From Candidatus Anstonellales archaeon (GTDB lineage Archaea; Micrarchaeota; Micrarchaeia; Anstonellales; J096): a DNA stretch of 64,000 nt. The stretch is from assembly GCA_038896535.1 (NCBI GenBank), contig JAWACY010000001.1, positions 96,001 through 160,000 on the forward strand, in the 5' to 3' direction. This document shows positions 15,950 to 57,645 of this stretch, one piece after another (the stretch's first letter is position 1; each line of letters starts with the position of its first letter). The notes beneath the pieces were generated by a model, which was given only the letters and a program-made list of their open reading frames with translations, ran no database searches and was not told the origin of the DNA. The position numbers and the translations under genes were made by a program.

Positions 15950-16231
15950 GTAAGAAGGCGGTGTATAAGCCAATTTGCCTTCTTCCCCAAGCGTATAATA
16001 GGGGCTGGAAGATTGTAAGAAGGCGTGTGTATAAGTTAATTTGCCTTCTTACTACAGGGAATAATAGGGGCAGGATGTTTGTAAGAAGGCGTGTGTATAA
16101 GGGTATTGCCTTCTTACCAAAGGGGATAATAGGGGCGGGAAGATTGTAAGAAGGCATGTTTAATAGGGTGAGCGCCTTCTTACCGGGAAGATTGTAAGAA
16201 GGCGTGTGTATAAGTTAATTTGCCTTCTTAC
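15950..16231 (-). repeat. tRNA-Lys-linked array of 5 palindromic units (GTAAGAAGGC-N17/18-GCCTTCTTAC)
   Basis: Units at 15950-15986, 16015-16052, 16081-16117, 16146-16183, 16194-16231; linkers 28, 28, 28 and 10 bp. Confidence 0.95.
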
Positions 16232-16233
16232 TA

Positions 16234-16307
16234 CGGGTCTGGAGGGATTTGAACCCTCGACACTCCGGTTAAGAGCCGGATGCTCTACCAAGCTGAGCTA
16301 CAGACCC
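16234..16307 (-). tRNA. tRNA-Lys (CTT)
   Basis: Reverse complement folds as a cloverleaf: GGGTCTG acceptor, CCGG-CT-CTT-AA-CCGG anticodon arm, GGTTCAAATCC T arm. Confidence 0.95.
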
Positions 16308-27959: not shown

Positions 27960-28034
27960 GGGCTCGTAGCTCAGCTTGGATAGAGCGGCTGCCTTCTAAG
28001 CAGTAGGTCGAGGGTTCAAATCCCTCCGAGCCCG
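27960..28034 (+). tRNA. tRNA-Arg (TCT)
   Basis: GGGCTCG/CGAGCCC acceptor, GCTGC-CT-TCT-AA-GCAGT, GGGTTCAAATCCC. Confidence 0.95.
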
Positions 28035-28037
28035 TAG

Positions 28038-28075
28038 GTAAGAAGGCGCTAACCCTATTATACATGCCTTCTTAC
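28038..28075 (+). repeat. Single palindromic unit of the tRNA-linked repeat family
   Basis: GTAAGAAGGC GCTAACCCTATTATACAT GCCTTCTTAC, 3 nt after tRNA-Arg. Confidence 0.95.
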
Positions 28076-28140
28076 AGTTAAAGATCTGAAATTTTATTTT
28101 TTATCAGCAAATTTAAAAAATTTTTTGCTTTAAAAAATTT

Positions 28141-31820: not shown

Positions 31821-32082
31821 GTGGCGGGCTTCCTGTTATGCAAGCATTCCCTAAGTGATCAGCATAACAAAGGCCCTCTGTGCTGTTTGCTCCAAACAAC
31901 TGCCATACACTTAGGGCTGCTCGTTACCGCCTGACCCAGTTCATGTATAGCAATCAATGGAGGACAGCACTTCATTGCTTTATTATGCCATCTTCCTTAA
32001 AGAATGCTTACTTCACAGGCATTCGGCCCGCCTATAGGGGATTTGCGGTAAAGGGACCCCTAGCCCCAGCCTAGCCCGCCAC
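31821..32082 (-). ncRNA. ffs: Signal recognition particle (7S) RNA
   Basis: Terminal helix GTGGCGGGCT/AGCCCGCCAC; Alu domain with complementary loops TAGGGG/CCCCTA; helix 8 motif GAAC..TCAGG-CG-GTAA-CG-AGCA. Confidence 0.93.
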
Positions 32083-36982: not shown

Positions 36983-38008
36983 ATGGATGAATTAATGAAA
37001 AGGCTTTCAGAAGCAAATGGCATTGCTGGTTATGAAGATGAAATAAGCCAGATCATGGCTAATGAAATGAAAAAAGCTGGCCTGCACGTTGAAATAGATA
37101 ATTTTGGTAATTTATTGGCTTACAAAAAAATAACGAAAAGGCCACTTGTATTCGCTGCACATATGGATGAAATAGGGATGAGCGTAAAGTATATAGACAA
37201 GGATGGGTTTATAAGATTTATAAAAATAGGAGGTATAGATGATAAAACACTCATTAATCAAAGTGTCTTGATAAAGGGTGAGAAGGGTTATGTAAATGGG
37301 GTCATAGGCATAAGACCACCTCATGTTATGAGTAAAGAAGAATTAAAAACATTTATTGAATACAAAAACATGTTCATTGATATAGGAGCAAAATCAAAAA
37401 AAGAAGTTGAAAGGCTTGGCATATATCCAGGAAGCCCAATATTTTTCAAAGCAAGTTTTAGTGAAATGCTCAATAACAGATTTTGTGGGAAGGCACTTGA
37501 TAACAGGATAGGATGTTATTTATTAATAAAATTAGCAAAAACCTTGCCAGAAAATGTTGTGCTCGTTGGAACTGCACAAGAGGAGGTTTCAGTATTTGGG
37601 AAAGGTGCTACAATAGCATCTTATAATTTAGAGCCAAGAATATTTATTGCTGTTGATACTGCTGTTGCTGGGGACCATCCAGAAATAAAGGAGGATGAGG
37701 CTCCAATAAAATTGGAAAAAGGAGCAGTAATAACATTAATAGAGGCAAGCGGGCTTGGTAATATAGCAAGCAAGCATTTAGCAAAAAAAATTATTGATAT
37801 AGCAAAAAGAGCAAAAATTCCATATCAGCTAGAAACAATTGAAGGAGGAGCCACAGATGCAGCTTCAGTTTATAATGTAAAGGGCGGCATACCATCAATA
37901 GCAATTTGCGTTCCGACAAGATATATACACAGCAACGTTAGTGTAGCAAGCAAAAAAGATGTTGACATATGCTTAAAATTACTTGAAAGGATTGCAAAAG
38001 AGTTATAG
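36983..38008 (+). CDS. M42 family (TET) aminopeptidase
   Basis: AHMDEIG, KALDNR, QEE, AVD, GGATDA, RYIHS. Confidence 0.93.
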   Translation: MDELMKRLSEANGIAGYEDEISQIMANEMKKAGLHVEIDNFGNLLAYKKITKRPLVFAAHMDEIGMSVKYIDKDGFIRFIKIGGIDDKTLINQSVLIKGEKGYVNGVIGIRPPHVMSKEELKTFIEYKNMFIDIGAKSKKEVERLGIYPGSPIFFKASFSEMLNNRFCGKALDNRIGCYLLIKLAKTLPENVVLVGTAQEEVSVFGKGATIASYNLEPRIFIAVDTAVAGDHPEIKEDEAPIKLEKGAVITLIEASGLGNIASKHLAKKIIDIAKRAKIPYQLETIEGGATDAASVYNVKGGIPSIAICVPTRYIHSNVSVASKKDVDICLKLLERIAKEL

Positions 38009-38041
38009 AGCTATTTATAGAGCTATAATCTTATGAATTTT

Positions 38042-38698
38042 TTATTTTTTAATAAATTTTTTTAATGATATATATGCCTTTTTTATGACTTTATCTAATA
38101 TGCTAGTTCTTTGCTCTAAAACTGGCATGCCTTTTCTTAATGCCATCAACAATTTTTCAGGAGTATTTATCTGAATATTATCATCAACAAATACATATGC
38201 CCTGCCAACTTCAAATGGACTATGGCTATCGCTTCCTGCTCCTTTTATTATATTATTTTCATCAGCGAATAATAGTGCCTCTTTATCAGCCTGTTCAGGG
38301 CTTTTTGCATTATAAACTTCTATAATATTGCATTCCTTCAATAGCTCTTTCTTATTTATTCCATGCCTCATAAAATCAAATGGATGCGGAGCATATGCAA
38401 TAGCTCCTTGACTTTTTATCTCATCTATGGTTTCATAAAAATCCATATATGGCCTTATCTCATCAAACAAAAAAAGGCCTATTAAATCCCCTTGTTTTGT
38501 TGTTATTTCTTCTCCAGGGATAACATAAATGCCTTGTTCCTTGCCAATTTTTTGTAATTCCTTTACTGCTCTCATTGTATTATGATCTGTTATTGCAATT
38601 GCATCTATGCCTTTTGCCTTTGCTCTTTTTATTAATTCACGCTTTGTTGTTAATGCATCTGGGCTAGCATCTGTATGGTTGTGCATATCAATCTTCAT
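38042..38698 (-). CDS. PHP-domain metal-dependent hydrolase
   Basis: DMHNHT, ITDHN, PGEE, PHPF, GSDSH. Confidence 0.9.
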   Translation of the reverse strand: MKIDMHNHTDASPDALTTKRELIKRAKAKGIDAIAITDHNTMRAVKELQKIGKEQGIYVIPGEEITTKQGDLIGLFLFDEIRPYMDFYETIDEIKSQGAIAYAPHPFDFMRHGINKKELLKECNIIEVYNAKSPEQADKEALLFADENNIIKGAGSDSHSPFEVGRAYVFVDDNIQINTPEKLLMALRKGMPVLEQRTSILDKVIKKAYISLKKFIKK

Positions 38699-39299
38699 CT
38701 AATTTATTCACCTCAACATGATATTTATCTATATTTGATATGATTATTTCAGGAAATATTATTGCTGCATTGTTTTTTAAATATCTCATTACATTTGCAC
38801 ACGCAATGCTTGCCAAAAAAGCTGCTGTATATGCATTACTTCTCTCTTGCTTCTGCTTTTTTTTGAAAAAAATTGAAGAGAATTTATGAAAATGGCTGAC
38901 TTCCACTATTGTTGTCATTCCTATATTGCCAGATATTGAACAAAAAACATAAGGACATTTTATTTCTTCTGCTTTTTTTAATACCTTTTTTCTGCTCTGC
39001 AATGAATCTGTGCAATCTAATATTAAAGATGCATCAAATTTTGCTTGGGAAACATCAAATGGGATATATGCAATTTTTGTTAAGCCTTTCAATTCTTTCT
39101 CTGCAGCTTCAACTTTTTTCATCCCAATATAAGATGGCTTGCAAAATCTCTGGTTTATGTTCTTTTTCTTTATTATATCAAAATCTATGAGCAATAACTT
39201 TAGCTTTTCTCTTGCCAGCAATTCACTTACAAATGAGCCAAGCCCTCCAATGCCAACAATAGCTATTTGCCTATTTAATTTATCTTTCATCTTTATCAA
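38688..39299 (-). CDS. ThiF/MoeB (E1-like) adenylyltransferase, short form
   Basis: VGIGGLGS, IDFD, KVEAA, LDCTDS...R. Confidence 0.75.
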   Translation of the reverse strand: MIKMKDKLNRQIAIVGIGGLGSFVSELLAREKLKLLLIDFDIIKKKNINQRFCKPSYIGMKKVEAAEKELKGLTKIAYIPFDVSQAKFDASLILDCTDSLQSRKKVLKKAEEIKCPYVFCSISGNIGMTTIVEVSHFHKFSSIFFKKKQKQERSNAYTAAFLASIACANVMRYLKNNAAIIFPEIIISNIDKYHVEVNKLDED

Positions 39300-40516
39300 A
39301 TAATGATTCTCACGTTCTCTGGTTCTTTTGCTAATGTTCCCTTCCTTATGCCTACTATAAATTTAATGCCTTTCTCGCTTGCAACATCTATAAGCCTTTG
39401 TGTTATTACCCCATCAAAAACAACTGCTCTAATGTTATTCATTGATATTATGTTTTGCAGCATTTCTCTAACAGATATTTCTTTAATTGGCTCAAAATTC
39501 TCATCATAAAGCCTTGCCCTTAACCTCCCTTTTATGCCTTCAAGTTCATTTTTCAGCTTTGATATAATTTCATTTTCATCTCTCTGCTCATATTCCTTAT
39601 TAACAATTCTTTCTTCCCTTGGCGCATATGCCTTTACATGTCTTTCATTTTCATTTGCTCCATTTCCTTCTTGCTCTAATGGCTTTTCCCTCTTCTTTTC
39701 ATGTATTACTGGCTCTTTATTTCTCAATATCTTTATTATTTCTTTTCTTGTCAATTCCTCTACTTCCATGCCAGGCGGGGCTCTTGCAATAAAATCTATA
39801 TCAACGCCTGCATTCAACATTTCTCTCAATATTATATCCCCCCCTCTATCACCATCAAGAAATGCTGTTATCTCTTTTTTCTTTGATAACTCTATTATTG
39901 TTTTTGGCACTTTTGCTCCGCCTATAGCAATAACATTTGATATGTCATTCTTCAAAAGGTTAATGACATCTGCTCTGCCTTCAACAATTATTATCTTATC
40001 TTCTATATCAACGCTTGGCCCTGCTGGTAATCTCTCTGGCCCATATTCAACAAGACCGCTTACTTTAACTTCTTTCTTTACCATTTCTGTCAGCTCTCTG
40101 CTCTCTGGTATTTGTGTCTCTATAAGCTGCTTTAACAAATACTTCGCCTTGTCAATGATTTTCTTTCTTTTTTCATTTCTATTATCTTCAACTCTGCTAA
40201 CATTTATTGAAGCATCATAAGGCCCTACTCTATCAACTGTTTCGAGTGCTGCTCCTATTATTGCAGTCTCAACCATGTCAAGGCTAGAAGGTATTTTTAT
40301 CACTCCTTTCGTTTTTCCTCCTTCATTAGCAATTTCAACTTCTATCCTGCCTATTCTTCCATTCTTTTGCAATTCCCTTAAATCCAAGTCTTCTCCCAAA
40401 AGCCCTTCTGTCTGGCCAAAAATAGCCCCTACAACATCTGGCTTATCAACACTACCACTAACAGAAAAATGCGCATATATTGTATATTTTACAGTATCTA
40501 TATATGTTTTTGCCAT
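39296..40516 (-). CDS. dnaG: Archaeal DnaG (exosome-associated primase-like protein)
   Basis: GAIFGQTEGLLG, IVEGRADV, AFLDGDRGG, FDGVITQRL. Confidence 0.95.
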   Translation of the reverse strand: MAKTYIDTVKYTIYAHFSVSGSVDKPDVVGAIFGQTEGLLGEDLDLRELQKNGRIGRIEVEIANEGGKTKGVIKIPSSLDMVETAIIGAALETVDRVGPYDASINVSRVEDNRNEKRKKIIDKAKYLLKQLIETQIPESRELTEMVKKEVKVSGLVEYGPERLPAGPSVDIEDKIIIVEGRADVINLLKNDISNVIAIGGAKVPKTIIELSKKKEITAFLDGDRGGDIILREMLNAGVDIDFIARAPPGMEVEELTRKEIIKILRNKEPVIHEKKREKPLEQEGNGANENERHVKAYAPREERIVNKEYEQRDENEIISKLKNELEGIKGRLRARLYDENFEPIKEISVREMLQNIISMNNIRAVVFDGVITQRLIDVASEKGIKFIVGIRKGTLAKEPENVRIII

Positions 40517-40881
40517 AATTCCACCTCTTTTTTATAAGCATTAAAAACATTTTCAACACGCCTTGTATTGAATAAAAAAAGAAATTTCTTCCTGAATTGA
40601 GTATCAATATTGTTTATGCCATCGTGTTGAGATAAAAAAGATTCAAAAAAAGAAGCAATCCTGTCCCCATCTTCATCTAAATCAGTTAGTATAATAACAT
40701 TACCTTTAATACTTGATGGCTTATTTACAGCATTATTAAACGTTATAGCATTTATACCAAATTTCAAAAGAGATTCCCTATCTCTCTTTCCCTCTACTAT
40801 AACAGTAGATGATTTAAGTCTGTCTATGTATGAAATCATCAATTTCATTTTTTCTTCTTCTGATAAATGTGAGCATTTCAT
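40498..40881 (-). CDS. Stand-alone TOPRIM domain protein
   Basis: VIVEGKRD, ILTDLDEDG; directly upstream of dnaG. Confidence 0.85.
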   Translation of the reverse strand: MKCSHLSEEEKMKLMISYIDRLKSSTVIVEGKRDRESLLKFGINAITFNNAVNKPSSIKGNVIILTDLDEDGDRIASFFESFLSQHDGINNIDTQFRKKFLFLFNTRRVENVFNAYKKEVELWQKHI

Positions 40882-40904
40882 GTTTATTACCCCATTTTAT
40901 GTAA

Positions 40905-40967
40905 TTTTGTGCCTGGTGCTGTTGACAAAGGCATTCACATATCATGCTTGCCATCCTGCACCAGGCA
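40905..40967 (-). ncRNA. Probable single-hairpin box H/ACA guide sRNA
   Basis: GCCTGGTGC/GCACCAGGC stem followed directly by ACA, internal pocket, upper stem, apical TGATATGTGA K-loop-like motif. Confidence 0.7.
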
Positions 40968-40985
40968 ATATTATGCTGAAGCATT

Positions 40986-41423
40986 TTATTCCTCCTTAAA
41001 AAATCCTGCTGCTGCCTTTTCTTCTATCAGATCAAGAACAGACGGTAAAAGCCTTAATATATCATTCTCTGTTATTATGCCAACAATATAACCTTTTTTA
41101 TCAATAACAGGCAATCTTCTAACATTGTTTTTCTTCATAATTTTTGCTGCAGTTTCTAATGAAACATCTGGAGCAGTAACAACTATTGGATGGCTCATTA
41201 TGTCTTTAACTTTAATGTTTGCTTGTTTTTCCTCTGCAACCATTTTTCTAACAATGTCCCTCTCTGTTAAAATGCCTTTAACCTCATTTTTCTCTATTAC
41301 AACAACAGAGCCTATATTGTGCCTTGCCATCAGTTTAGCTGCTTCTTTTACTGGAGCATCAGCATTTATCACTACAACATTTGTTTTCATAACATCTTTA
41401 ACTTTTAATCCTGAAGTTAACAT
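40986..41423 (-). CDS. CBS-domain pair protein
   Basis: VKDVM, GILTERD, RRLPV, GIITEND. Confidence 0.92.
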   Translation of the reverse strand: MLTSGLKVKDVMKTNVVVINADAPVKEAAKLMARHNIGSVVVIEKNEVKGILTERDIVRKMVAEEKQANIKVKDIMSHPIVVTAPDVSLETAAKIMKKNNVRRLPVIDKKGYIVGIITENDILRLLPSVLDLIEEKAAAGFFKEE

Positions 41424-41474
41424 AAATTATTTTTTATACAAAATGTTTAAAAAATGCTTGCTTTTCTCTTTATT

Positions 41475-41645
41475 ATGGGCGCATTAAAACCTGGCATGAC
41501 AGTTTTAATTAAAGTCGGGGCAGATAAAGGCAAGGAGGCAGTCATAAAAGAAATTATTGATGATAATTATGTAAAAATAAAGCTTATCAAAGGGAAAAAT
41601 GAAGTAGAGAGAAGGATAAATGTGAGGCATATAAAGATAAAATGA
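41475..41645 (+). CDS. rpl14e: 50S ribosomal protein L14e (short KOW form)
   Basis: GADKGKEAVI...DDNYV...RRINVRHI; conserved position before cbf5. Confidence 0.8.
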   Translation: MGALKPGMTVLIKVGADKGKEAVIKEIIDDNYVKIKLIKGKNEVERRINVRHIKIK

Positions 41646-42493
41646 ACATAATGGCAGAAACAGCAGAAAAAATCAAGAATGGTTTCATTGTTGTTGATAA
41701 GCCTGCGAATTTAAACAGCCATGAAGTATCTGCATACATAGGAAAATGGCTTAACATAAAAGCAGGCCATGCTGGAACGCTTGACCCAGATGTTACTGGC
41801 TTATTAATAGTCGGCTTGGGAAAGGCAACCAGGATGCTTAGATTTTTAGCAGAACAGGAAAAGGAATATATATGCTTGATGAAGTTGAACAAGGAAAAGA
41901 CAAGAGAAGAAATTGAAAGAATGTTCAAAGCTTATGAAAGGGATATCTGGCAAACCCCGCCAGAAAAAAGTGCTGTTGCAAAAAAGCCTAGGAAAAGAAA
42001 GGTGTATAATTTAAAGCTTATTGAAATACATGACAAACTCGTATTATTTAAAGCGCTTGTTGAAAAAGGCACTTATATGCGCGTATTATGCAAGCAAATG
42101 AATGGGGAAATGCTAGATTTAAGAAGGATAAGCTCTGCCTGTATTAACGAGAAATATGCTTTTATCATGCAAAAAATAAAGCATGCAATTGATAATTATA
42201 GAGGGGGAAATGCGGAAGAGCTTCATGAAATAATAAAGAGCCCAGAAGAGATTTTCAGTCTTAGCTGTATACAAAAAATATATGTTAATGAAAGGGCAGC
42301 ACAAAATATATTGAAAGGAGCCCCATTATATGCCCCTGGTATAATATGGGAAAAAACAGAAGAAAAAGGAAAAATAAAAAATGGTTATGCTGCAGTATTT
42401 TCTGGAGATAGGCTCATAGCAATAATGAATGTCATAAACGAGAATGCAAGAAAAAAAGGCGTGGTTGCAAAAATAGAAAGATTAAATATTTAA
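41642..42493 (+). CDS. cbf5: RNA-guided pseudouridine synthase Cbf5 (TruB family)
   Basis: VDKP, GHAGTLDP, QTPP.KSAV, GTYMR.LC, C-terminal PUA domain. Confidence 0.9.
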   Translation: MNIMAETAEKIKNGFIVVDKPANLNSHEVSAYIGKWLNIKAGHAGTLDPDVTGLLIVGLGKATRMLRFLAEQEKEYICLMKLNKEKTREEIERMFKAYERDIWQTPPEKSAVAKKPRKRKVYNLKLIEIHDKLVLFKALVEKGTYMRVLCKQMNGEMLDLRRISSACINEKYAFIMQKIKHAIDNYRGGNAEELHEIIKSPEEIFSLSCIQKIYVNERAAQNILKGAPLYAPGIIWEKTEEKGKIKNGYAAVFSGDRLIAIMNVINENARKKGVVAKIERLNI

Positions 42494-42591
42494 TCATTTT
42501 AACATTGCCATACTAACATTGCCATACTCAAAGGCAATAAAAGCAATTAACAAAGCACAAGCAACTAATAAAGCAAAAATAAATAAATATA

Positions 42592-43842
42592 TTGGTTAAA
42601 TATAATGTGGATTTAATAGCAGATTTTCATCTACACACAAAGTATAGTGCAGCTACTTCAAAAAATATGGATATTGAAAATTTGGCATATGCTGCTAAAA
42701 TGAAAGGCATTTCATTATTGGGAAGTGGCGATTTTACACACCCATTGCAGTTCAGAGAAATAAAAGAAATGCTTGTTTTCAATGATGGAATAGCAATGTA
42801 TAATGGCATATATTTTATTTTGAGTGTTGAAGTCAGCAATGTTTTTAATATAGAAAACAAAACATATAAAGTGCATACAGTAATTTTAAGCCCATCATTG
42901 GACATAGCTGAACAAATTAATGAAACACTATCGAAACATGGCAATTTAAGTGAAGATGGGAGGCCAACATTAAATTACAGCACTTATGAAATGAATGAGG
43001 AATTGAAAGCTATAAGCAGGGATATTGCACTAATACCAGCCCATATATGGACGCCTTGGTTTTCTTTATTTGGCGCACATTTTGGGGCAGATGACATTAA
43101 TGAGCTATATCCAGATGACAGCCTTATAATTGCACTTGAAACTGGATTAAGTAGCGATCCTTTAATGAACTGGATGGTTTCAAAAATAGATAAATATACA
43201 CTTGTTTCAAATTCTGATGCTCATAGCCTTGAAAATCTTGGCAGAGAAGGAAATAAGATAAGGTTAAAGCAAATCACATATAAAGAAATAGTAAATGGCA
43301 TAAGGACTGGAAATGCAATGTTAAAGACATATGAATATTTCCCACAAGAAGGAAAATACTTTAATGACGGGCATAGAAAATGCAACATCAATCTTAGCCC
43401 AGAAGAAGCAGAAAAAATAAGGGGTATATGCCCAGTATGTAAAAGAAAGCTTACTATAGGGGTTATGCACAGAATAAAAAAAATGGCTGATAGAAAGTAT
43501 GGAGAAAAAAAGCCAAATTGGAAGGGATATCAGCACATAATACCATTAAAACAAGTCATAGCAAAGGTAAAAAATAAAACAAAAGAATCAAAAACAGTAC
43601 AAAGCATATATAATGATATGATATCATATTTTGGCAACGAGTTTGCTATTTATGAAGCAAATGAAAATGATTTACTCGCTTATACAGATAAAGACATAGC
43701 TAATGCACTTATAAAAATAAAAAAAGAACAAGTTTATTGGAAACCTGGTTATGATGGCGTTTTTGGAGAATTCTTTTTAAATGGGAATGTAGAAAATAAA
43801 AACAAACAAGAAATGCTTAAAAGGTGGTTTGATGAAGTATGA
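42592..43842 (+). CDS. Endonuclease Q family PHP-domain protein
   Basis: DFHLHTKYS, GDFTHP, PAHIWTPW, ETGLS, SNSDAHS, CPVC, PGYDGVFG. Confidence 0.85.
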   Translation: MVKYNVDLIADFHLHTKYSAATSKNMDIENLAYAAKMKGISLLGSGDFTHPLQFREIKEMLVFNDGIAMYNGIYFILSVEVSNVFNIENKTYKVHTVILSPSLDIAEQINETLSKHGNLSEDGRPTLNYSTYEMNEELKAISRDIALIPAHIWTPWFSLFGAHFGADDINELYPDDSLIIALETGLSSDPLMNWMVSKIDKYTLVSNSDAHSLENLGREGNKIRLKQITYKEIVNGIRTGNAMLKTYEYFPQEGKYFNDGHRKCNINLSPEEAEKIRGICPVCKRKLTIGVMHRIKKMADRKYGEKKPNWKGYQHIIPLKQVIAKVKNKTKESKTVQSIYNDMISYFGNEFAIYEANENDLLAYTDKDIANALIKIKKEQVYWKPGYDGVFGEFFLNGNVENKNKQEMLKRWFDEV

Positions 43843-44479
43843 ATTAGCAAGCATTGAAAAAATAGGAGAATACAAAATATTCAGACTTTTTCCTCAAGAA
43901 AGCCCAATAACTTTTAAGCCGGGACAATTTATAAAATTAAGTTTTCCTGATGGCAATGGGAAGCCATATTCTATTGCAAGCTCACCATCATGGCCGTTCT
44001 TAGAATTTCTTATACATATAACTGGTGGGCCATTCACTTCATTGTTAGATAAGGTAGAAATTGGGCAGGTATTTGATATAAGCAAAGCAGCAGGCCATTT
44101 TACTTATGATGGGCAAAGAAATGCTGTTTTTATTGCAGGCGGGGCAGGAATTGCCCCAATCATGAGCATTATTAGATATATTGCAGAAAATAAAACAGAT
44201 GGAAATTTTAATGTTTTTTATAGCTCAAGAACTTTTTCCAACAGCCCATATATATCTGAGCTTATAGGTTATGAAAAGAGCGGTATAATAAAGCTTTGCC
44301 ATACATTAACAAGAGAAGAAAGAAAAAATTATTTGTGCGGTAGGATAAATGTAGACATGATAAGGCCTATCGTTAATAAAGAGACAAGTATATATTTATG
44401 CGGAAATAAGGCAATGGCAAATGACTTTATGCAATTAAAAGAGCTTGCAAAAGAAATGAAAATAGAGGCATGGGGTTAA
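43829..44479 (+). CDS. FAD/NAD(P)-binding oxidoreductase (ferredoxin reductase-like)
   Basis: PGQF, PYSIAS, AGGAGIAP, YLCG, EAW. Confidence 0.9.
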   Translation: MMKYELASIEKIGEYKIFRLFPQESPITFKPGQFIKLSFPDGNGKPYSIASSPSWPFLEFLIHITGGPFTSLLDKVEIGQVFDISKAAGHFTYDGQRNAVFIAGGAGIAPIMSIIRYIAENKTDGNFNVFYSSRTFSNSPYISELIGYEKSGIIKLCHTLTREERKNYLCGRINVDMIRPIVNKETSIYLCGNKAMANDFMQLKELAKEMKIEAWG

Positions 44480-44517
44480 TTTAAGAGTCATTTTAAATTA
44501 ATTGTAATAAGTATTAA

Positions 44518-45393
44518 TTAATCGCTTATCAAAGGCTCACATCCATCTTTTGTTACAATAACAGTTTTCTCTGCTTGCGCAACTTGGCCTTTTTTCTGCT
44601 CTTCTAATATTGGATAGGCTTGTATTGATTTTAAAGACAGCATCTCTTTTAATGCCGCATGTAATAAAATTTTGTTATTAACCTTTTCATAAATCCATCT
44701 CTCTGCAAAAGGCAATATGCCATATTTATCTTTTATATAATCAGCTATTATTTTACTCTCCCTAAATCTAAACCTGCTGTGTTTTAAATAGCTATATATT
44801 TCAACTTCATTTTTTTCAACCACATAACCGCTTGCATCTTTTGATGTTACAAATGGTTCTATTGCAAAAACATCGCCTTCTTTTATTACATAAACATCAT
44901 TCACTGGAACGTTTGGCAATGTAATGCCTGAATGCAAATGCATACCTTCTATTTTATGTCCTGTAAGGTTTGATATTGGTTTAAAGTCATATTTTTTTAT
45001 TTCTCTATATATTACATTACTTATCTCCTTTATTGTTTTTCCTGGCTTTATTTCTTCAATCGCTTTTTGCAATGCCATCTCAGAACATTCAACTATTTTA
45101 TCAAAATTGCCGTTGAAATCAAGTGTTATTGCATTATCACTAATAATTCCATCAAGGGCAATGCCAAAATCAACCTTTACAAGCTCATTGCCAATTATTG
45201 CATTATCATTTATTGCTGGCGTAGCATGAGCAGCAATATGGCCAATGCTTATATTTAAAGGAAATGCTGGCTTGGCGCCATATTCAAAAATTGCATTCTC
45301 TATTCCATTTGCTATATCAATTAACTTAACTCCTGGTTTTACATCTTTTATTATCTTATCTCTTATCCTTTTTGCTATGTCTTTTATTAGCAT
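44518..45393 (-). CDS. map: Methionine aminopeptidase type II
   Basis: AFP.N.S, AAHATP, KVDFG, NLTGH, AIEPF, AQAEKT. Confidence 0.93.
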   Translation of the reverse strand: MLIKDIAKRIRDKIIKDVKPGVKLIDIANGIENAIFEYGAKPAFPLNISIGHIAAHATPAINDNAIIGNELVKVDFGIALDGIISDNAITLDFNGNFDKIVECSEMALQKAIEEIKPGKTIKEISNVIYREIKKYDFKPISNLTGHKIEGMHLHSGITLPNVPVNDVYVIKEGDVFAIEPFVTSKDASGYVVEKNEVEIYSYLKHSRFRFRESKIIADYIKDKYGILPFAERWIYEKVNNKILLHAALKEMLSLKSIQAYPILEEQKKGQVAQAEKTVIVTKDGCEPLISD

Positions 45394-45443
45394 AAGTGCA
45401 TATAAATGCAAAAGTTTTTTATTATATTATGACAAATACATTT

Positions 45444-46670
45444 ATGCTTATAAAAAGTGTAAGCGCAACATGGATCATTGATTCAAGGGCCATGCCAACA
45501 ATAAAGGCAATTGTAAAAACAGAAAATGCAACAGGCATTGGCCACGCTCCATCTGGTGCATCAAAAGGCCAGCATGAGGCCATTGAATTAAGAGATAACA
45601 AAAATGATTTTCATGGGATGGGCGTTTATAATGCAATTAAAAATATAAAAGCACATATAGCAAAAGCAATTGTTGGGAAAAATGTTAGTGAGCAAGAAGA
45701 TATAGATAATAGCATGATAAAGATAGATGGAACAAAAAATAAAAGCAAGCTTGGTGCAAATGCAACAATTGCATGTTCAATTGCGTGTTTAGATGCTGCG
45801 GCTAAAGAGAACAATATGGAATTATTTGAATACATTGCAAAAAAATATAAAAGAAAGCCAAAAATACCATATTGCATGTTCAACATAATAAACGGGGGCA
45901 AACATGCAGGAAATAAGCTATCAATTCAAGAATTTCTCATTGTGCCCATAATAAAAGATGTGAGGCAAGCAGTAAAAGCAAGCATGGAAATTTATCAAGA
46001 ATTAAAAGAAGAAATAAAAAAGGCATATGGGAGGCATTCGATAAATGTTGGCGATGAGGGTGGTTTTTCTCCAAATATGCAGAGGAACTGGCAGGCAATA
46101 GAAATAATAAAAAAGGCCATAGAAAAAACTGGTTATGAAAAAGAAATTAAAATAAGCATTGATGCTGCTGCTGATTCATTTTATAATAGCAATGCTGATA
46201 AATATGAGGTTGATGAAAAAATGCTTGATAAAGAAGAATTGCTAGATTATTATAAAGAGCTTGTAAAAACATATGGCATACTAAGCATAGAGGACCCATT
46301 TTATGAAAAACACGGCCAGCAATTCAAATTACTTAAAAGATATGTTAAAGTAATTGGTGATGACCTAACAGTAACAAACATTGAACTTGTTAAGAAAAAT
46401 AAGGACTTCATAAATGGTATTATAATAAAGCCAAACCAGATAGGAACAATAAGCGAGACAATAAAGGCGTTTGACTATGCAATTAAGCATGTGCCCTTTA
46501 TTATAACAAGCCACCGTTCTGGGGAAACTGAAAGCAGCTTTATAGCTGATTTTGCTGTTGGAATAGCAAGCCCGTATGTTAAATTTGGCGCTCCAGCAAG
46601 AGGGGAAAGGACTGTTAAATATAACAGGCTTATGGATATAGGTGATGAACTTGGCATGGCAGGGAATTAA
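45444..46670 (+). CDS. eno: Enolase
   Basis: PSGAS, LGANA, INGGKHA, VGDEGG, GDDL, SHRSGETE. Confidence 0.96.
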   Translation: MLIKSVSATWIIDSRAMPTIKAIVKTENATGIGHAPSGASKGQHEAIELRDNKNDFHGMGVYNAIKNIKAHIAKAIVGKNVSEQEDIDNSMIKIDGTKNKSKLGANATIACSIACLDAAAKENNMELFEYIAKKYKRKPKIPYCMFNIINGGKHAGNKLSIQEFLIVPIIKDVRQAVKASMEIYQELKEEIKKAYGRHSINVGDEGGFSPNMQRNWQAIEIIKKAIEKTGYEKEIKISIDAAADSFYNSNADKYEVDEKMLDKEELLDYYKELVKTYGILSIEDPFYEKHGQQFKLLKRYVKVIGDDLTVTNIELVKKNKDFINGIIIKPNQIGTISETIKAFDYAIKHVPFIITSHRSGETESSFIADFAVGIASPYVKFGAPARGERTVKYNRLMDIGDELGMAGN

Positions 46671-46674
46671 TTTA

Positions 46675-47019
46675 ATGAAAAAACAAGCATTAAATGAAAA
46701 TAAAGCAAAGGATATAATTATTATAGAATTAGCAATAAAAGTATTTGAATTTCTTCTATTCTTTTTTGCTCTTATATTAGTTTCTGTTAACCTGTCAATA
46801 ATATCTATGATGACACTTGCAATGCTCTATTATGTTGGTTACCAGAAAAATATTTTTGAAAAAGAGAACATTGGCATAACTGATATGGTAAATAAGTATT
46901 TTTCATTTCCAATACTCTTATTGCTTCTAATGTTGCTTATTGGTGATACATCATTAAAGCTTTCTATAATTGCATTTTCAGCACAAGGAGCAATGAAGGC
47001 AATAGCAACAAATGCTTAA
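46675..47019 (+). CDS. Hypothetical membrane protein
   Basis: Hydrophobic ORF starting just after the eno stop. Confidence 0.5.
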   Translation: MKKQALNENKAKDIIIIELAIKVFEFLLFFFALILVSVNLSIISMMTLAMLYYVGYQKNIFEKENIGITDMVNKYFSFPILLLLLMLLIGDTSLKLSIIAFSAQGAMKAIATNA

Positions 47020-47137
47020 ATTGATAAATAAAATGTGAAGTTAAAATTTAATTAAAAGCCAAATTTAAATATTTATATATAGCTAATGATATAGCCTAAT
47101 AAATATAGCATAATGATATAGCTTAATTTCACATAAA

Positions 47138-47734
47138 CTAATCAGTATTCAGCATAGCAATAAAATGGTTTATCTTGTCTTTAAATGTATTTATATCATT
47201 ATTATTCTCTATAACAATATCAGCCATTAATAATGCCTTTTCTATGCCAGCTTGTTTTTCTTTTTCTTCTTGTTTTAAAAACTGCTCATAATTAATTGGT
47301 TCAGCTATCTTTTTTCTTTCTTTGACCCTATTAAACCTTATATTATCATCTGCCCTTATCTCAATTATAAGGGCATTCTTAATAAATTTTGAAAAATAAT
47401 TTATTTCTTCAACGCTTCTTATGCCTACTATAATGATTAATTCATGCCCTTTTAATTTTCCAGCAAGCATATCCCCATTTATATTATCAATAACATATTT
47501 AGCAAAAACATCCCAGCCATGCATTTCTCTCTCTTTTATCATAAATGCTCTTAAGTTCTCATTTGTTAATTCTATGTCTTTTTCTTTCATGCTTTTTTTT
47601 ACTATCTCCCCCATCTCATAAACAATAAAACCTTTTGCCTTTAAATGCTCAGCAAACACAGTTTTACCGCTTCCCTTTTTGCCCAAAACAAGCAAAGCTT
47701 TATTTATGATTGCCATATTAATACGCCTTTTCAT
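47138..47734 (-). CDS. P-loop nucleotide kinase (UPF0200/dephospho-CoA kinase-like)
   Basis: GKKGSGKT, GIRS.EE, ADIVIENN. Confidence 0.8.
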   Translation of the reverse strand: MKRRINMAIINKALLVLGKKGSGKTVFAEHLKAKGFIVYEMGEIVKKSMKEKDIELTNENLRAFMIKEREMHGWDVFAKYVIDNINGDMLAGKLKGHELIIIVGIRSVEEINYFSKFIKNALIIEIRADDNIRFNRVKERKKIAEPINYEQFLKQEEKEKQAGIEKALLMADIVIENNNDINTFKDKINHFIAMLNTD

Positions 47735-47963
47735 TTTAAAGCGTTTTACAGCAAGTAAAGAAATTAATAATCAATTCAGCGCTCCAGATATTCATCACAA
47801 ATCAGAAAACCTGCATATCATCATAAAAGAAAATTGCAACAAAAATTTAAAATATTATTGTAATAAAATGTTCATAAATATCATATAAGGTCAGATAAAA
47901 TAACAAAAAACAATAATATTTAAATACTTGTAATAATTAATAATTATTACTAATTTCTTCTGT

Positions 47964-48016
47964 GGGGGACTGGTACCTTGCCAGCGTCGGGCTGTTGCCT
48001 GATGCTGGCCTCTTCC
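47964..48016 (+). other. GC-rich structured element, candidate small RNA
   Basis: 13-bp hairpin GCCAGCGTCGGGC-TGTT-GCCTGATGCTGGC with two G-U pairs, in an AT-rich intergenic region. Confidence 0.4.
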
Positions 48017-51054: not shown

Positions 51055-51142
51055 GCCCGGGTGGCAGAGCGGCCATGCGGCCGGCTGCAGCTCCAGAAAA
51101 AGTAGAAACCGGCATAGGGGGGTTCGACTCCCTCCCCGGGCT
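51055..51142 (+). tRNA. tRNA-Cys (GCA) with a 17-nt intron at 37/38 (51091-51107)
   Basis: GCCCGGG/CCCGGGC acceptor; GCCGG-CT-GCA-G[intron]A-CCGGC; CTGC/GTAG central helix. Confidence 0.9.
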
Positions 51143-56429: not shown

Positions 56430-56896
56430 TTGTAGAAGGCATTGGAATTGCAATAATATTTTTTATTGCTGGCTATTTAACAGACAAAATAGATTTCATA
56501 ATTGATGATTTAAAAAAAATGCCAAATCTTGGCTTGCAACTACTATTCCTTTTATTTGTAGGAATAACTGCAGTTATTGGTTATTATTATTTTCCATCTC
56601 TTTACATAGGCGTTGTAATTGGGCTTATGTTATCTGGAAAAGTTGATAAATTAATATTTGTCATTGCAGCTCTGTTTTTTATACCATACATATTCCTTAA
56701 TATTGATTATAAAATAGCTGCAATGTTTGGCCTTGCCTCTTTTTTAGATGAAAAGCCATTATTCAGCAAAACAAGACCTTTTTTAAAAATATTGAGCATA
56801 GGATATGGGCTTTTTTATAACCCCCTAGTTATTGCTGCTTTTGGAGCTTTTGATTTGGGCTATGAATATAATACACATAAAATAAATAAAAAATAA
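56426..56896 (+). CDS. Hypothetical membrane protein
   Basis: ATGA overlap with the upstream gene; several TMs; GKVD, FLDE, FDLGY. Confidence 0.65.
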   Translation: MIVEGIGIAIIFFIAGYLTDKIDFIIDDLKKMPNLGLQLLFLLFVGITAVIGYYYFPSLYIGVVIGLMLSGKVDKLIFVIAALFFIPYIFLNIDYKIAAMFGLASFLDEKPLFSKTRPFLKILSIGYGLFYNPLVIAAFGAFDLGYEYNTHKINKK

Positions 56897-56961
56897 AGGA
56901 AATTGAGAGTAAGAAGGAAATTAATCATAATTAGAAATGATCAAAAATAAATGCTCAAATA

Positions 56962-57033
56962 GCCCTAGTAGCTCAGCGGAAGAGCGTTCGCCTCGTAAGC
57001 GAAAGGTCGGGGGTTCAAATCCCCCCTAGGGCT
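56962..57033 (+). tRNA. tRNA-Thr (CGT)
   Basis: GCCCTAG/CTAGGGC acceptor, TTCGC-CT-CGT-AA-GCGAA, GGGGGTTCAAATCCCCC. Confidence 0.95.
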
Positions 57034-57037
57034 CTTG

Positions 57038-57435
57038 GTAAGAAGGCAAATTAACTTATACACACGCCTTCTTACAAACATCCCGCCCCTATTATACGCT
57101 TGTGGAAGAAGGCGCTAACCCTTATACACACGCCTTCTTACAATCTTCCAGGTAAGAAGGCAAATTAACTTATACACATGCCTTCTTACAATCTTCCAAC
57201 CCCTATTATTCCCTGTGGTAAGAAGGCAAATTGACTGATAAACATGCCTTCTTACAAACATCCCACCCCTATTATTCCCTGTGGTAAGAAGGCGCTAACC
57301 CTTATACACACGCCTTCTTACAATCTTCCAGGTAAGAAGGCAAATTGACTGATAAACATGCCTTCTTACAAACATCCCACCCCTATTATTCCCTGTGGTA
57401 AGAAGGCGCTAACCCTTATACACACGCCTTCTTAC
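57038..57435 (+). repeat. tRNA-Thr-linked array of 7 palindromic 38-bp units
   Basis: Units start at 57038, 57104, 57152, 57218, 57284, 57332, 57398; linkers 28, 10, 28, 28, 10, 28 bp. Confidence 0.95.
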
Positions 57436-57645
57436 AAATATACAACTACTATTATCACCTCGATTTATTATAAACACGGCCAGAGTTGAGGATTAATAAT
57501 ATAAGCAAATAGTCAAAGAAAAGATAGAAATTATGGCCTTAACTATTTTGATATTATTTTAAGCGCCTGCTTTCTGCCCTTCAAGTCAGAGAAAAAATAA
57601 AAAAGAAAAAATTTTAGCCTTAGTCAGCAATATTTTAAACTGCTA

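Follow-up and report, generated by a model that had tools for sequence, protein, structure and literature searches.

Head-to-tail arrays of a species-specific palindromic repeat at the 3′ ends of tRNA genes in a small-genome archaeon

A tRNA-Thr(CGT) gene of a Candidatus Anstonellales archaeon is followed, within a few nucleotides, by seven closely similar hairpins, which raises the question of what such an array is and how it came to lie there. The window analyzed was a stretch of 64,000 nucleotides of the genome. An earlier note, made from the letters of that stretch alone, had counted 13 copies of the hairpin behind three tRNA genes and offered three options: structured RNAs transcribed along with the tRNA and freed by tRNase Z, sites or scars of a recombinase that targets tRNA 3′ ends, or a dispersed repeat resembling the bacterial REP/BIME families.

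The repeated unit is a hairpin of 37–38 nt with perfect 10-bp arms, present in the window in 13 copies that form three clusters. A search of the window for the arm followed by 14–22 nt and the reverse-complement arm returned 11 exact matches, as against none in 100 shuffled sequences, and two more units (15950–15986 and 57104–57141) carry one arm mismatch, so that the original count of 13 stands. Five other window matches to a single arm with one mismatch are isolated and consistent with the 3.1 expected by chance. The largest cluster has the following parts.

56962–57034, + strand: tRNA-Thr(CGT), with no encoded CCA (ARAGORN; Rfam tRNA, 73 bits, 56962–57033)
57035–57037, + strand: spacer of 3 nt between tRNA-Thr(CGT) and the first hairpin, read from the sequence (4 nt by the Rfam end at 57033)
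57038–57435, + strand: array of 7 hairpin units after tRNA-Thr(CGT) (pattern search and matches of covariance model R1)
57038–57075, 57104–57141 (one arm mismatch), 57152–57189 and 57218–57255, + strand: units 1–4
57284–57321, 57332–57369 and 57398–57435, + strand: units 5–7
57076–57103, 57190–57217, 57256–57283 and 57370–57397, + strand: 28-nt linkers
57142–57151 and 57322–57331, + strand: 10-nt linkers
57436–57463, + strand: degenerate tail resembling a linker, which ends the array on the side away from the tRNA, read from the sequence

The linkers of 28 or 10 nt give periods of 66 or 48 nt, and the 10-nt form is identical to the first 10 nt of the 28-nt form. Units 4–5 and 6–7 constitute a duplicated 114-nt two-unit block. 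A coding repeat was rejected: 48 and 66 are divisible by three, yet the periods span 46 to 71 nt. Upstream of the gene, a copy of the 5′ arm with 9 of 10 matching positions lies at 56909–56918 (+), 44 nt before tRNA-Thr(CGT), and could pair with any 3′ arm. A processing stem drawn around the tRNA in the style of rRNA genes was nevertheless set aside, since no other array-bearing tRNA has such an arm-like 9/10 match upstream.

The two remaining clusters in the window consist of the following features.

16234–16307, − strand: tRNA-Lys(CTT) gene (ARAGORN and Rfam)
15950–16231, − strand: array of 5 units after tRNA-Lys(CTT), with a 2-nt gap (pattern search)
16194–16231, 16146–16183, 16081–16117, 16015–16052 and 15950–15986, − strand: the five units of that array
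27960–28034, + strand: tRNA-Arg(TCT) gene (ARAGORN and Rfam)
28038–28075, + strand: single hairpin unit after tRNA-Arg(TCT), with a 3-nt gap, the smallest form of the element
28092–28102, + strand: T4 and T6 tracts, 16–21 nt past the single unit, read from the sequence

The degenerate unit of the Lys-CTT array is the one most distant from the tRNA. The clusters had been described as starting 2, 3 and 4 nt past tRNA-Lys(CTT), tRNA-Arg(TCT) and tRNA-Thr(CGT), which agrees with gaps of 2, 3 and 3 nt by ARAGORN (4 nt for Thr by Rfam). Linker lengths, periods and the common orientation relative to the tRNA were likewise given correctly. The T4 and T6 tracts at 28092–28102 are likely to be the terminator of a predicted transcript comprising tRNA-Arg(TCT) and its hairpin. 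Two other RNA genes of the window were also inspected. At 51055–51142 (+), ARAGORN reported an undetermined tRNA with a four-base anticodon when introns were not searched for and an 88-nt intron-containing tRNA-Cys(GCA) when they were. The SRP RNA at 31824–32079 (−) had the bacterial large-SRP model as its top Rfam match (98 bits), a weaker match from that clan being omitted.

The assembly comprises 751,790 bp in 5 contigs, with 32% G+C and a completeness of 91%. Proteins encoded beside the Thr-CGT array are archaeal, among them a threonyl-tRNA synthetase with an archaea-specific editing domain, FEN-1 and a class III signal peptide protein; KaiC-like and secretion-ATPase genes are further neighbors. 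The junction between the tRNA and the first unit (56600–57065) was present in contigs of four DNA runs that belong to two hot-spring metagenome studies, and the junction between the last unit and the flank (57408/9–57900) in two of those four runs. The interior was mostly tiled by exact contigs of 60–152 nt from one run (X6). Because both junctions and most of the interior were recovered in contigs, the Thr-CGT array is real; that it might be an assembly artefact, an outcome the earlier note had named as fatal to its case, is contradicted by these contigs. No contig spanned the entire array in the four DNA runs (k = 31 contigs), and the number of units is therefore that of the assembly. A few contig joints carry letters typical of other arrays in the genome and were not taken as variants.

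Across the whole genome, a relaxed pattern placed 67 hairpins into 17 clusters. When 33 units were used to build a covariance model, it found 69 sense-strand copies, all intergenic and all within the same 17 clusters over the 751,790 bp, together with two weak antisense matches. The end of contig C2 (C2:240144–240444) and the start of contig C4 (C4:1–93) fall inside one unit type. This boundary corresponds to the array of tRNA-Leu(CAG), of at least 6 units, where the assembly broke, and C2 and C4 probably adjoin. As these two clusters are probably one array split by the assembly, the 17 clusters were counted as 16 arrays, which total 3,816 bp, or 0.5% of the genome's DNA. Relic pieces, half a unit and a fragment of a long linker, were seen away from the arrays at C1:168297–168318 and C1:51927–51943.

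Association with tRNA genes extends well beyond the window. Intron-aware ARAGORN gave 43 tRNA genes, and 12 of the 16 arrays start 0–4 nt past the 3′ end of one of them, mostly after a 2-nt TA spacer. The tRNAs concerned are Leu-GAG, Leu-CAA, Leu-TAG, Leu-CAG, Arg-TCG, Arg-CCT, Arg-TCT, Thr-CGT, Thr-TGT, Ile-GAT, Lys-CTT and an intron-containing tRNA called Ile(TAT) by ARAGORN. The chance that 12 of 16 arrays would have their start on the correct strand and no more than 6 nt past the end of one of the 43 tRNAs is ∼1e-42. The genome-wide check that had been called for thus shows the copies to be anything but random with respect to tRNAs. A count of perfect hairpins of at least 8 bp found them behind 12 of 43 tRNAs, compared with 2 of 43 when the upstream side was taken as control. 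A thirteenth array lies 83 nt past tRNA-Leu(TAA), and all 13 tRNA-linked arrays have the orientation of their tRNA. Three arrays are not linked to tRNAs: one is co-oriented with a gene and begins 6 nt past its stop codon, a REP-like placement, and two occupy divergent intergenic regions. Overall, 10 of the 16 arrays face a convergent gene.

Since tRNA 3′ ends are classic integration sites, the arrays might be scars or targets of an integrase of that specificity, produced by a virus or plasmid that integrated and was excised repeatedly. The 83-nt insert between tRNA-Leu(TAA) and its array (L005:231–313; C1:207430–207512 of the genome, G000) bears on this idea. It ends in a 7-bp palindrome made of antisense and sense T-loop copies, the second T-loop copy, of 10 nt, directly adjoining the first hairpin. 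Tandem copies of tRNA tails were also seen behind three tRNAs of a relative from a related genus, G010, where modules of ∼55–130 nt follow tRNA-Arg(GCG), tRNA-Thr(GGT) and tRNA-Leu(TAA) (L040, L041 and L046). These modules close with an exact repeat of the last 20–25 nt of the tRNA, and one of them is tripled, in a family in which no integrase was found. Against such an origin, 11 of the 12 array loci lack any repeated stretch of the tRNA tail as long as 9 nt, and the arrays begin past the tRNA, not within it. Moreover, neither the tyrosine recombinase family Phage_integrase (PF00589) nor the serine recombinase family (PF00239) was detected in any of the 19 genomes of the family, and no viral or plasmid copy of the repeat was found. 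The absence of PF00589 from all 19 means that not even a recombinase of the XerA type, which resolves chromosomes, is detectable in the family. Duplication of an att site by an integrase was rejected on these grounds, and integrase scars in general are very improbable, which disfavors the recombinase option of the earlier note.

Sequence conservation within the repeat was computed on the 57 units with an 18-nt loop; because units are repeated within and between arrays, they are non-independent samples in these statistics. Mean pairwise identity was 0.93–0.95 for the arms, with column identities of 0.96–1.0 in the inner eight base pairs, compared with 0.63 for the loops and 0.79 for the long linkers. 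The description of almost invariant arms around variable loops is therefore confirmed. Loop positions 8, 9, 12 and 13 are, however, invariant or almost so. Stem pairs other than Watson-Crick were few, amounting to 25 of 680 (9 G·A, 8 G·T or T·G, 2 A·C and 6 others). In a subfamily of three neighboring arrays (C1, 31–64 kb), the outermost G-C pair is replaced by A-T on both arms. Arms that hardly vary and four fixed loop positions, set against loops that drift, imply that the units are probably read by a sequence-specific partner, either protein or RNA.

All arrays are strictly head-to-tail, with a single orientation of their units, and range from 1 to 7 or more units per site. The tRNA-proximal unit is intact and the distal unit often degenerate. 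Identical units recur between arrays and, as duplicated blocks, inside them. Such a pattern suggests that the arrays grow by local tandem duplication; slippage and unequal exchange should be favored because identical arms let neighboring units pair in two registers. The first unit is common to the isoacceptor pairs Thr-CGT/Thr-TGT and Leu-TAG/Leu-CAG, and arrays probably move between tRNA genes of similar 3′ halves by recombination. Thr-GGT remains array-free despite a 3′ half nearly identical to that of Thr-TGT. Recombination between tRNA genes also leaves unexplained how an array first arrived at a tRNA without downstream homology.

Several features point to transcription of the arrays together with their tRNAs. 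When tabulated by hand, a tract of four or more T residues was present within 25 nt of the tRNA end for 20 of 30 array-free tRNAs, compared with 2 of 12 array-bearing ones. The 3,816 bp of arrays hold only two tracts of five or more T residues on the sense strand and one on the antisense strand, whereas ∼24 are expected per strand. The sense-strand T run of an oligo-T terminator is thus largely lacking from the arrays, and the depletion, being present on both strands, gives no direction by itself. Composition does differ between strands: on the tRNA strand, the unpaired loops and linkers have 8% G and 28–34% C, as against 16% of each genome-wide. The count of 8 G·T to 2 A·C among the non-Watson-Crick stem pairs is a further sign of strand asymmetry. 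In folding calculations, the Thr-CGT array gave z scores of −9.96 for the sense and −4.61 for the antisense RNA, and all seven of its hairpins appear in the minimum-energy fold of the sense RNA. From position, fixed orientation, the absent oligo-T tracts and the strand-asymmetric composition, we infer that the arrays would be co-transcribed with their tRNAs. Transcription by an RNA polymerase that starts at the tRNA promoter most likely continues through the array, since the oligo-T terminator usually found close behind the tRNA genes of this genome sits beyond it.

The same features were considered in terms of DNA. The arrays might offer a dimeric protein its binding sites, in double-stranded or cruciform form, downstream of tRNA genes with strong transcription, and have a topological or architectural role or be a barrier to transcription or replication. 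Comparable roles have been proposed for the gyrase-binding BIMEs of Escherichia coli. Perfect 10-bp dyad arms that are fixed in sequence genome-wide and made of purine/pyrimidine tracts would suit such sites, as would the location of 10 of 16 arrays between convergent units and the loss of T tracts from both strands. A symmetric site, however, needs no fixed orientation, yet all 13 tRNA-linked arrays share one, and the excess of C over G in loops and linkers of the tRNA strand has no obvious reason at the DNA level. The 17–18-nt spacing of the half-sites is also long for a dimer, and arrays are present at just 12 of 43 tRNAs. A role confined to DNA is, on this evidence, quite unlikely.

Released trailers could alternatively yield functional small RNAs, the trailer being cut into single hairpins that work as guides or decoys or that imitate, toward tRNA-processing enzymes, the acceptor/T-arm helix of a tRNA. 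The evidence from position and strand is shared with the co-transcription reading, the four invariant or near-invariant loop positions would fit a functional RNA, and a precedent for a useful RNA set free from a tRNA trailer is offered by the tRNA-Val and C/D box sRNA of Nanoarchaeum equitans (PMC3491384). Rfam, on the other hand, gave no family but tRNA at the arrays and none for the hairpin unit. A C/D box sRNA was rejected because no boxes were seen by eye and no Rfam model matched. Antisense targets of at least 14 nt elsewhere in the genome were absent except for one 16-nt match with a mismatch, which was not convincing. A conserved function would also be expected to persist, whereas the covariance model found the repeat in none of 60 relatives, and copy number ranges from 1 to 7 or more per site. 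Small RNAs of this kind are decidedly improbable.

The distribution of the repeat was examined with both the exact arms and the covariance model. The arms were found in only one of 41 genomes searched, namely the archaeon's own. No viral contig contained the exact hairpin pattern, and blastn against plasmids and phages gave no match. The 13 bacterial matches to the exact pattern among genome contigs were rejected as unrelated, each being a lone terminator-like hairpin. Of 17 metagenome loci with the exact pattern, 13 were likewise lone matches and four (L072, L073, L075 and L088) were tandem palindromes on eukaryote-like contigs. These four contigs have an ORF with a retroelement zinc knuckle and tandem 52-nt palindromic repeats; their arms are identical to those of the archaeal unit by coincidence, the loops and linkers being unrelated and no tRNA being present.

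Relatives nevertheless have hairpins of their own behind tRNAs. Perfect hairpins of at least 8 bp starting within 8 nt of the tRNA end were counted, with the upstream side as control, at up to 30 tRNA loci per genome out of 43–44 tRNA matches (24 of 24 for G010). The results for sampled tRNAs were as follows.

G001: 4 of 31 (upstream control, 1)
G002: 8 of 31 (upstream control, 2)
G008: 4 of 31 (upstream control, 0)
G009: 0 of 31 (upstream control, 0)
G010: 3 of 20 (upstream control, 0)
G023, from another family: 1 of 32 (upstream control, 1)

In the same-genus genomes G001 and G002, near-perfect palindromes with a loop of 3 nt, as many as five to an array and joined by ∼10-nt linkers, stand behind tRNAs for Ala, Val, Pro and Ile. 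G010 and G013 have G-rich 8-bp hairpins with a 42-nt linker, in 12 and 3 copies, respectively, and none of the other 17 family genomes has them. When the repeat was aligned locally with the hairpins of G010 and G002, the scores were reached by 151 and 668 of 2,000 shuffles, respectively. Because these similarities are not significant, the hairpin arrays of G010 and G002 are regarded as analogous to those described here, not homologous; the proposal of a conserved core in the form of a 28-nt linker hairpin was dropped. Sister species have their arrays at different sets of tRNAs, which is what mobile DNA would be expected to show and a conserved device for tRNA processing would not. Species specificity, patchy occupancy of tRNAs and turnover between sister species give the arrays the look of DNA that is selfish or at any rate dispensable.

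A mobile origin could take the form of a non-autonomous transposable element (MITE-, REP- or PATE-like), with a dedicated enzyme inserting units by tRNA 3′ ends or by existing units. That enzyme would be a very divergent or novel protein of the archaeon itself or would come from a virus, a plasmid or the host cell. Invariant arms around drifting interiors are what transposase-bound ends would produce, and the 10-bp arms correspond to the terminal inverted repeats of a MITE. Species-specific families at different tRNA sets in sister species, three off-tRNA copies plus relic half units and insertion points that are precise despite differing tRNA end sequences also speak for such an element. The searches for its enzyme, however, were negative in the archaeon's own genome, where Y1_Tnp (PF01797; genome 91% complete), Phage_integrase, TnpB (PF07282) and reverse transcriptase (RVT_1) had no match; the HUH/Y1 or tyrosine/serine recombinase whose co-occurrence the earlier note had proposed to look for is accordingly not found there. 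Family-wide, Y1_Tnp was detected in 1 of 19 genomes, as a fragment in G008, IS4/IS5-type DDE_Tnp_1 (PF01609) in 4 of 19, the archaeon's own not among them, and resolvase, IS630-type DDE_3 (PF13358) and IS110 (PF01548) in none. No pair of ORFs at separate loci exceeded 74% identity among the 962 ORFs of at least 100 amino acids, indicating that the genome has no insertion sequences.

The autonomous transposase partner of a MITE was thus not found with five Pfam families and the multi-copy ORF search, and no target-site duplication was present around the single unit at 28038–28075, whose flanks are TAG and AGT. Because the genome is 91% complete, a mobilizing enzyme could still be missed. No copy was found on viral contigs, phages or plasmids either, and on the whole an element moved by a dedicated enzyme is unlikely. 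A match to a known MITE or terminator family, which would have spoken against novelty, did not emerge from the Rfam, viral and plasmid searches.

The genome does encode a CRISPR-Cas system, so that the statement that no cas gene is present holds for the window and fails for the genome. The only such locus, complete-looking and of type III, lies outside the window on contig C2 of G000, at about 37,500–48,000 (L253:3562–13968), with genes for a 781-aa Cas10/Csm1-like protein, RAMPs, Cas2, Cas1, a CARF Csx1-like protein and Cas6. Its array (L253:9219–9704) comprises 7 repeats of ∼37 nt with 36–39-nt spacers, and the repeat differs from the hairpin. Five spacers could be extracted in full; they are unique and match nothing elsewhere in the genome, the hairpin arrays included. 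The hairpin arrays were rejected as the genome's CRISPR because the cas-linked repeat is different and because the segments between hairpins are interrelated, not unique.

Taken together, the arrays are best read as a species-specific REP-like palindromic repeat in tRNA 3′ trailers that would be co-transcribed with the tRNA, clipped off by tRNase Z and enlarged by tandem duplication, an interpretation to which we give about an even chance. Each transcribed unit would fold as a 10-bp hairpin, and tRNase Z would cut past the discriminator base, leaving a mature tRNA and a hairpin-rich trailer. A full-length tRNase Z gene is present in the genome (C3:39534–40397; TIGR02651, 266 bits), as in all 19 family genomes. 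The RNA and REP-like options of the earlier note are combined here, and we hold the combination with middling confidence: position, orientation, strand asymmetry and the tRNase Z gene speak for it, and the REP/RAYT part was not borne out in the strict sense set out below. Two observations sit uneasily with this trailer reading. The two orphan arrays in divergent intergenic regions would need a promoter of their own, and the 10 of 16 arrays that face a convergent gene would also fit a barrier at the DNA level.

More broadly, it is possible, if doubtful, that the arrays belong to an undescribed class of hairpin elements that seek out the 3′ ends of tRNAs in archaea with small genomes, perhaps also in ultra-small bacteria, and multiply with no transposase or recombinase of a known kind. 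Where such an element inserts would be set by the processed tRNA end, not by DNA sequence, and the species-specific arms would be read by a co-evolving factor. A full-text literature search found no published description of such tRNA-tail hairpin arrays, in agreement with the suggestion that the system is undescribed. The genome has been streamlined to 0.75 Mb, without insertion sequences, yet devotes 0.5% of its DNA to one hairpin repeat at tRNA ends. Either tRNA trailers serve an unrecognized use at the RNA or DNA level, or DNA spreads to tRNA ends without known enzymes, and sister species show the same architecture in other sequences. In practical terms, such arrays break assemblies, as with the contig of this genome that ends within one, and they may be misread as CRISPRs.

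Known systems resemble the arrays in part. CRISPR arrays share regular palindromic repeats and polar decay with a degenerate unit at one end, whereas here the loops are 63% and the long linkers 79% identical and no cas genes adjoin. The attC sites of integrons, including CALIN clusters, are imperfect hairpins of 57–141 nt with extrahelical bases, recombined by the tyrosine recombinase IntI; the present stems are perfect over 10 bp, the units measure 38 nt and PF00589 is absent. The distal repeats of the E. coli tyrT operon, with the rtT RNA, are in tandem directly behind a tRNA gene, as here, and are co-transcribed and processed off. They are, however, 178 bp long and each recopies the tRNA 3′ end, unlike 11 of the 12 arrays, and Rfam gave no match here beyond the tRNA itself.

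Two archaeal cases also have an element placed just behind tRNA genes. Methanopyrus kandleri has a palindromic motif ∼10 bp downstream of roughly half of its tRNA genes, proposed by its authors as a possible signal for tRNA 3′-end maturation (PMC5217627). Like the present repeat it is an archaeal, species-specific inverted repeat at a fixed position behind a subset of tRNAs; it differs in consisting of one 5-bp dyad whose spacer is 9 nt, with no arrays and no linker module, and its sequence is unrelated (PMC5217627). N. equitans, like this organism a DPANN archaeon, encodes an RNA directly behind a tRNA, in a dicistronic tRNA-Val and C/D box sRNA for which an RNase Z cleavage site was proposed (PMC3491384). 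That sRNA has C/D boxes, whereas the hairpin units, judged by eye and by the lack of an Rfam match, do not, and they are repeated.

The closest likeness is to the bacterial REP/BIME/REPIN-RAYT systems, which also consist of short palindromes of ∼35–40 nt in dozens of copies, extragenic and usually 3′ of a transcription unit, clustered, species-specific and with stems better conserved than loops. The 69 extragenic copies agree with this picture. REP clusters are, however, alternating or inverted, whereas the archaeal arrays are strictly head-to-tail, and REPs are mobilized by RAYT Y1 transposases, of which there is none in this genome nor in 18 of the 19 family genomes. Because these two defining features are lacking, the repeat is not a member of a REP/RAYT family. 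Unlike REPs, moreover, 12 of the 16 arrays are anchored at tRNA 3′ ends. The element is therefore classed as a palindromic repeat of REP-like form whose habit is new: anchored at tRNA ends, polar and arranged head-to-tail.
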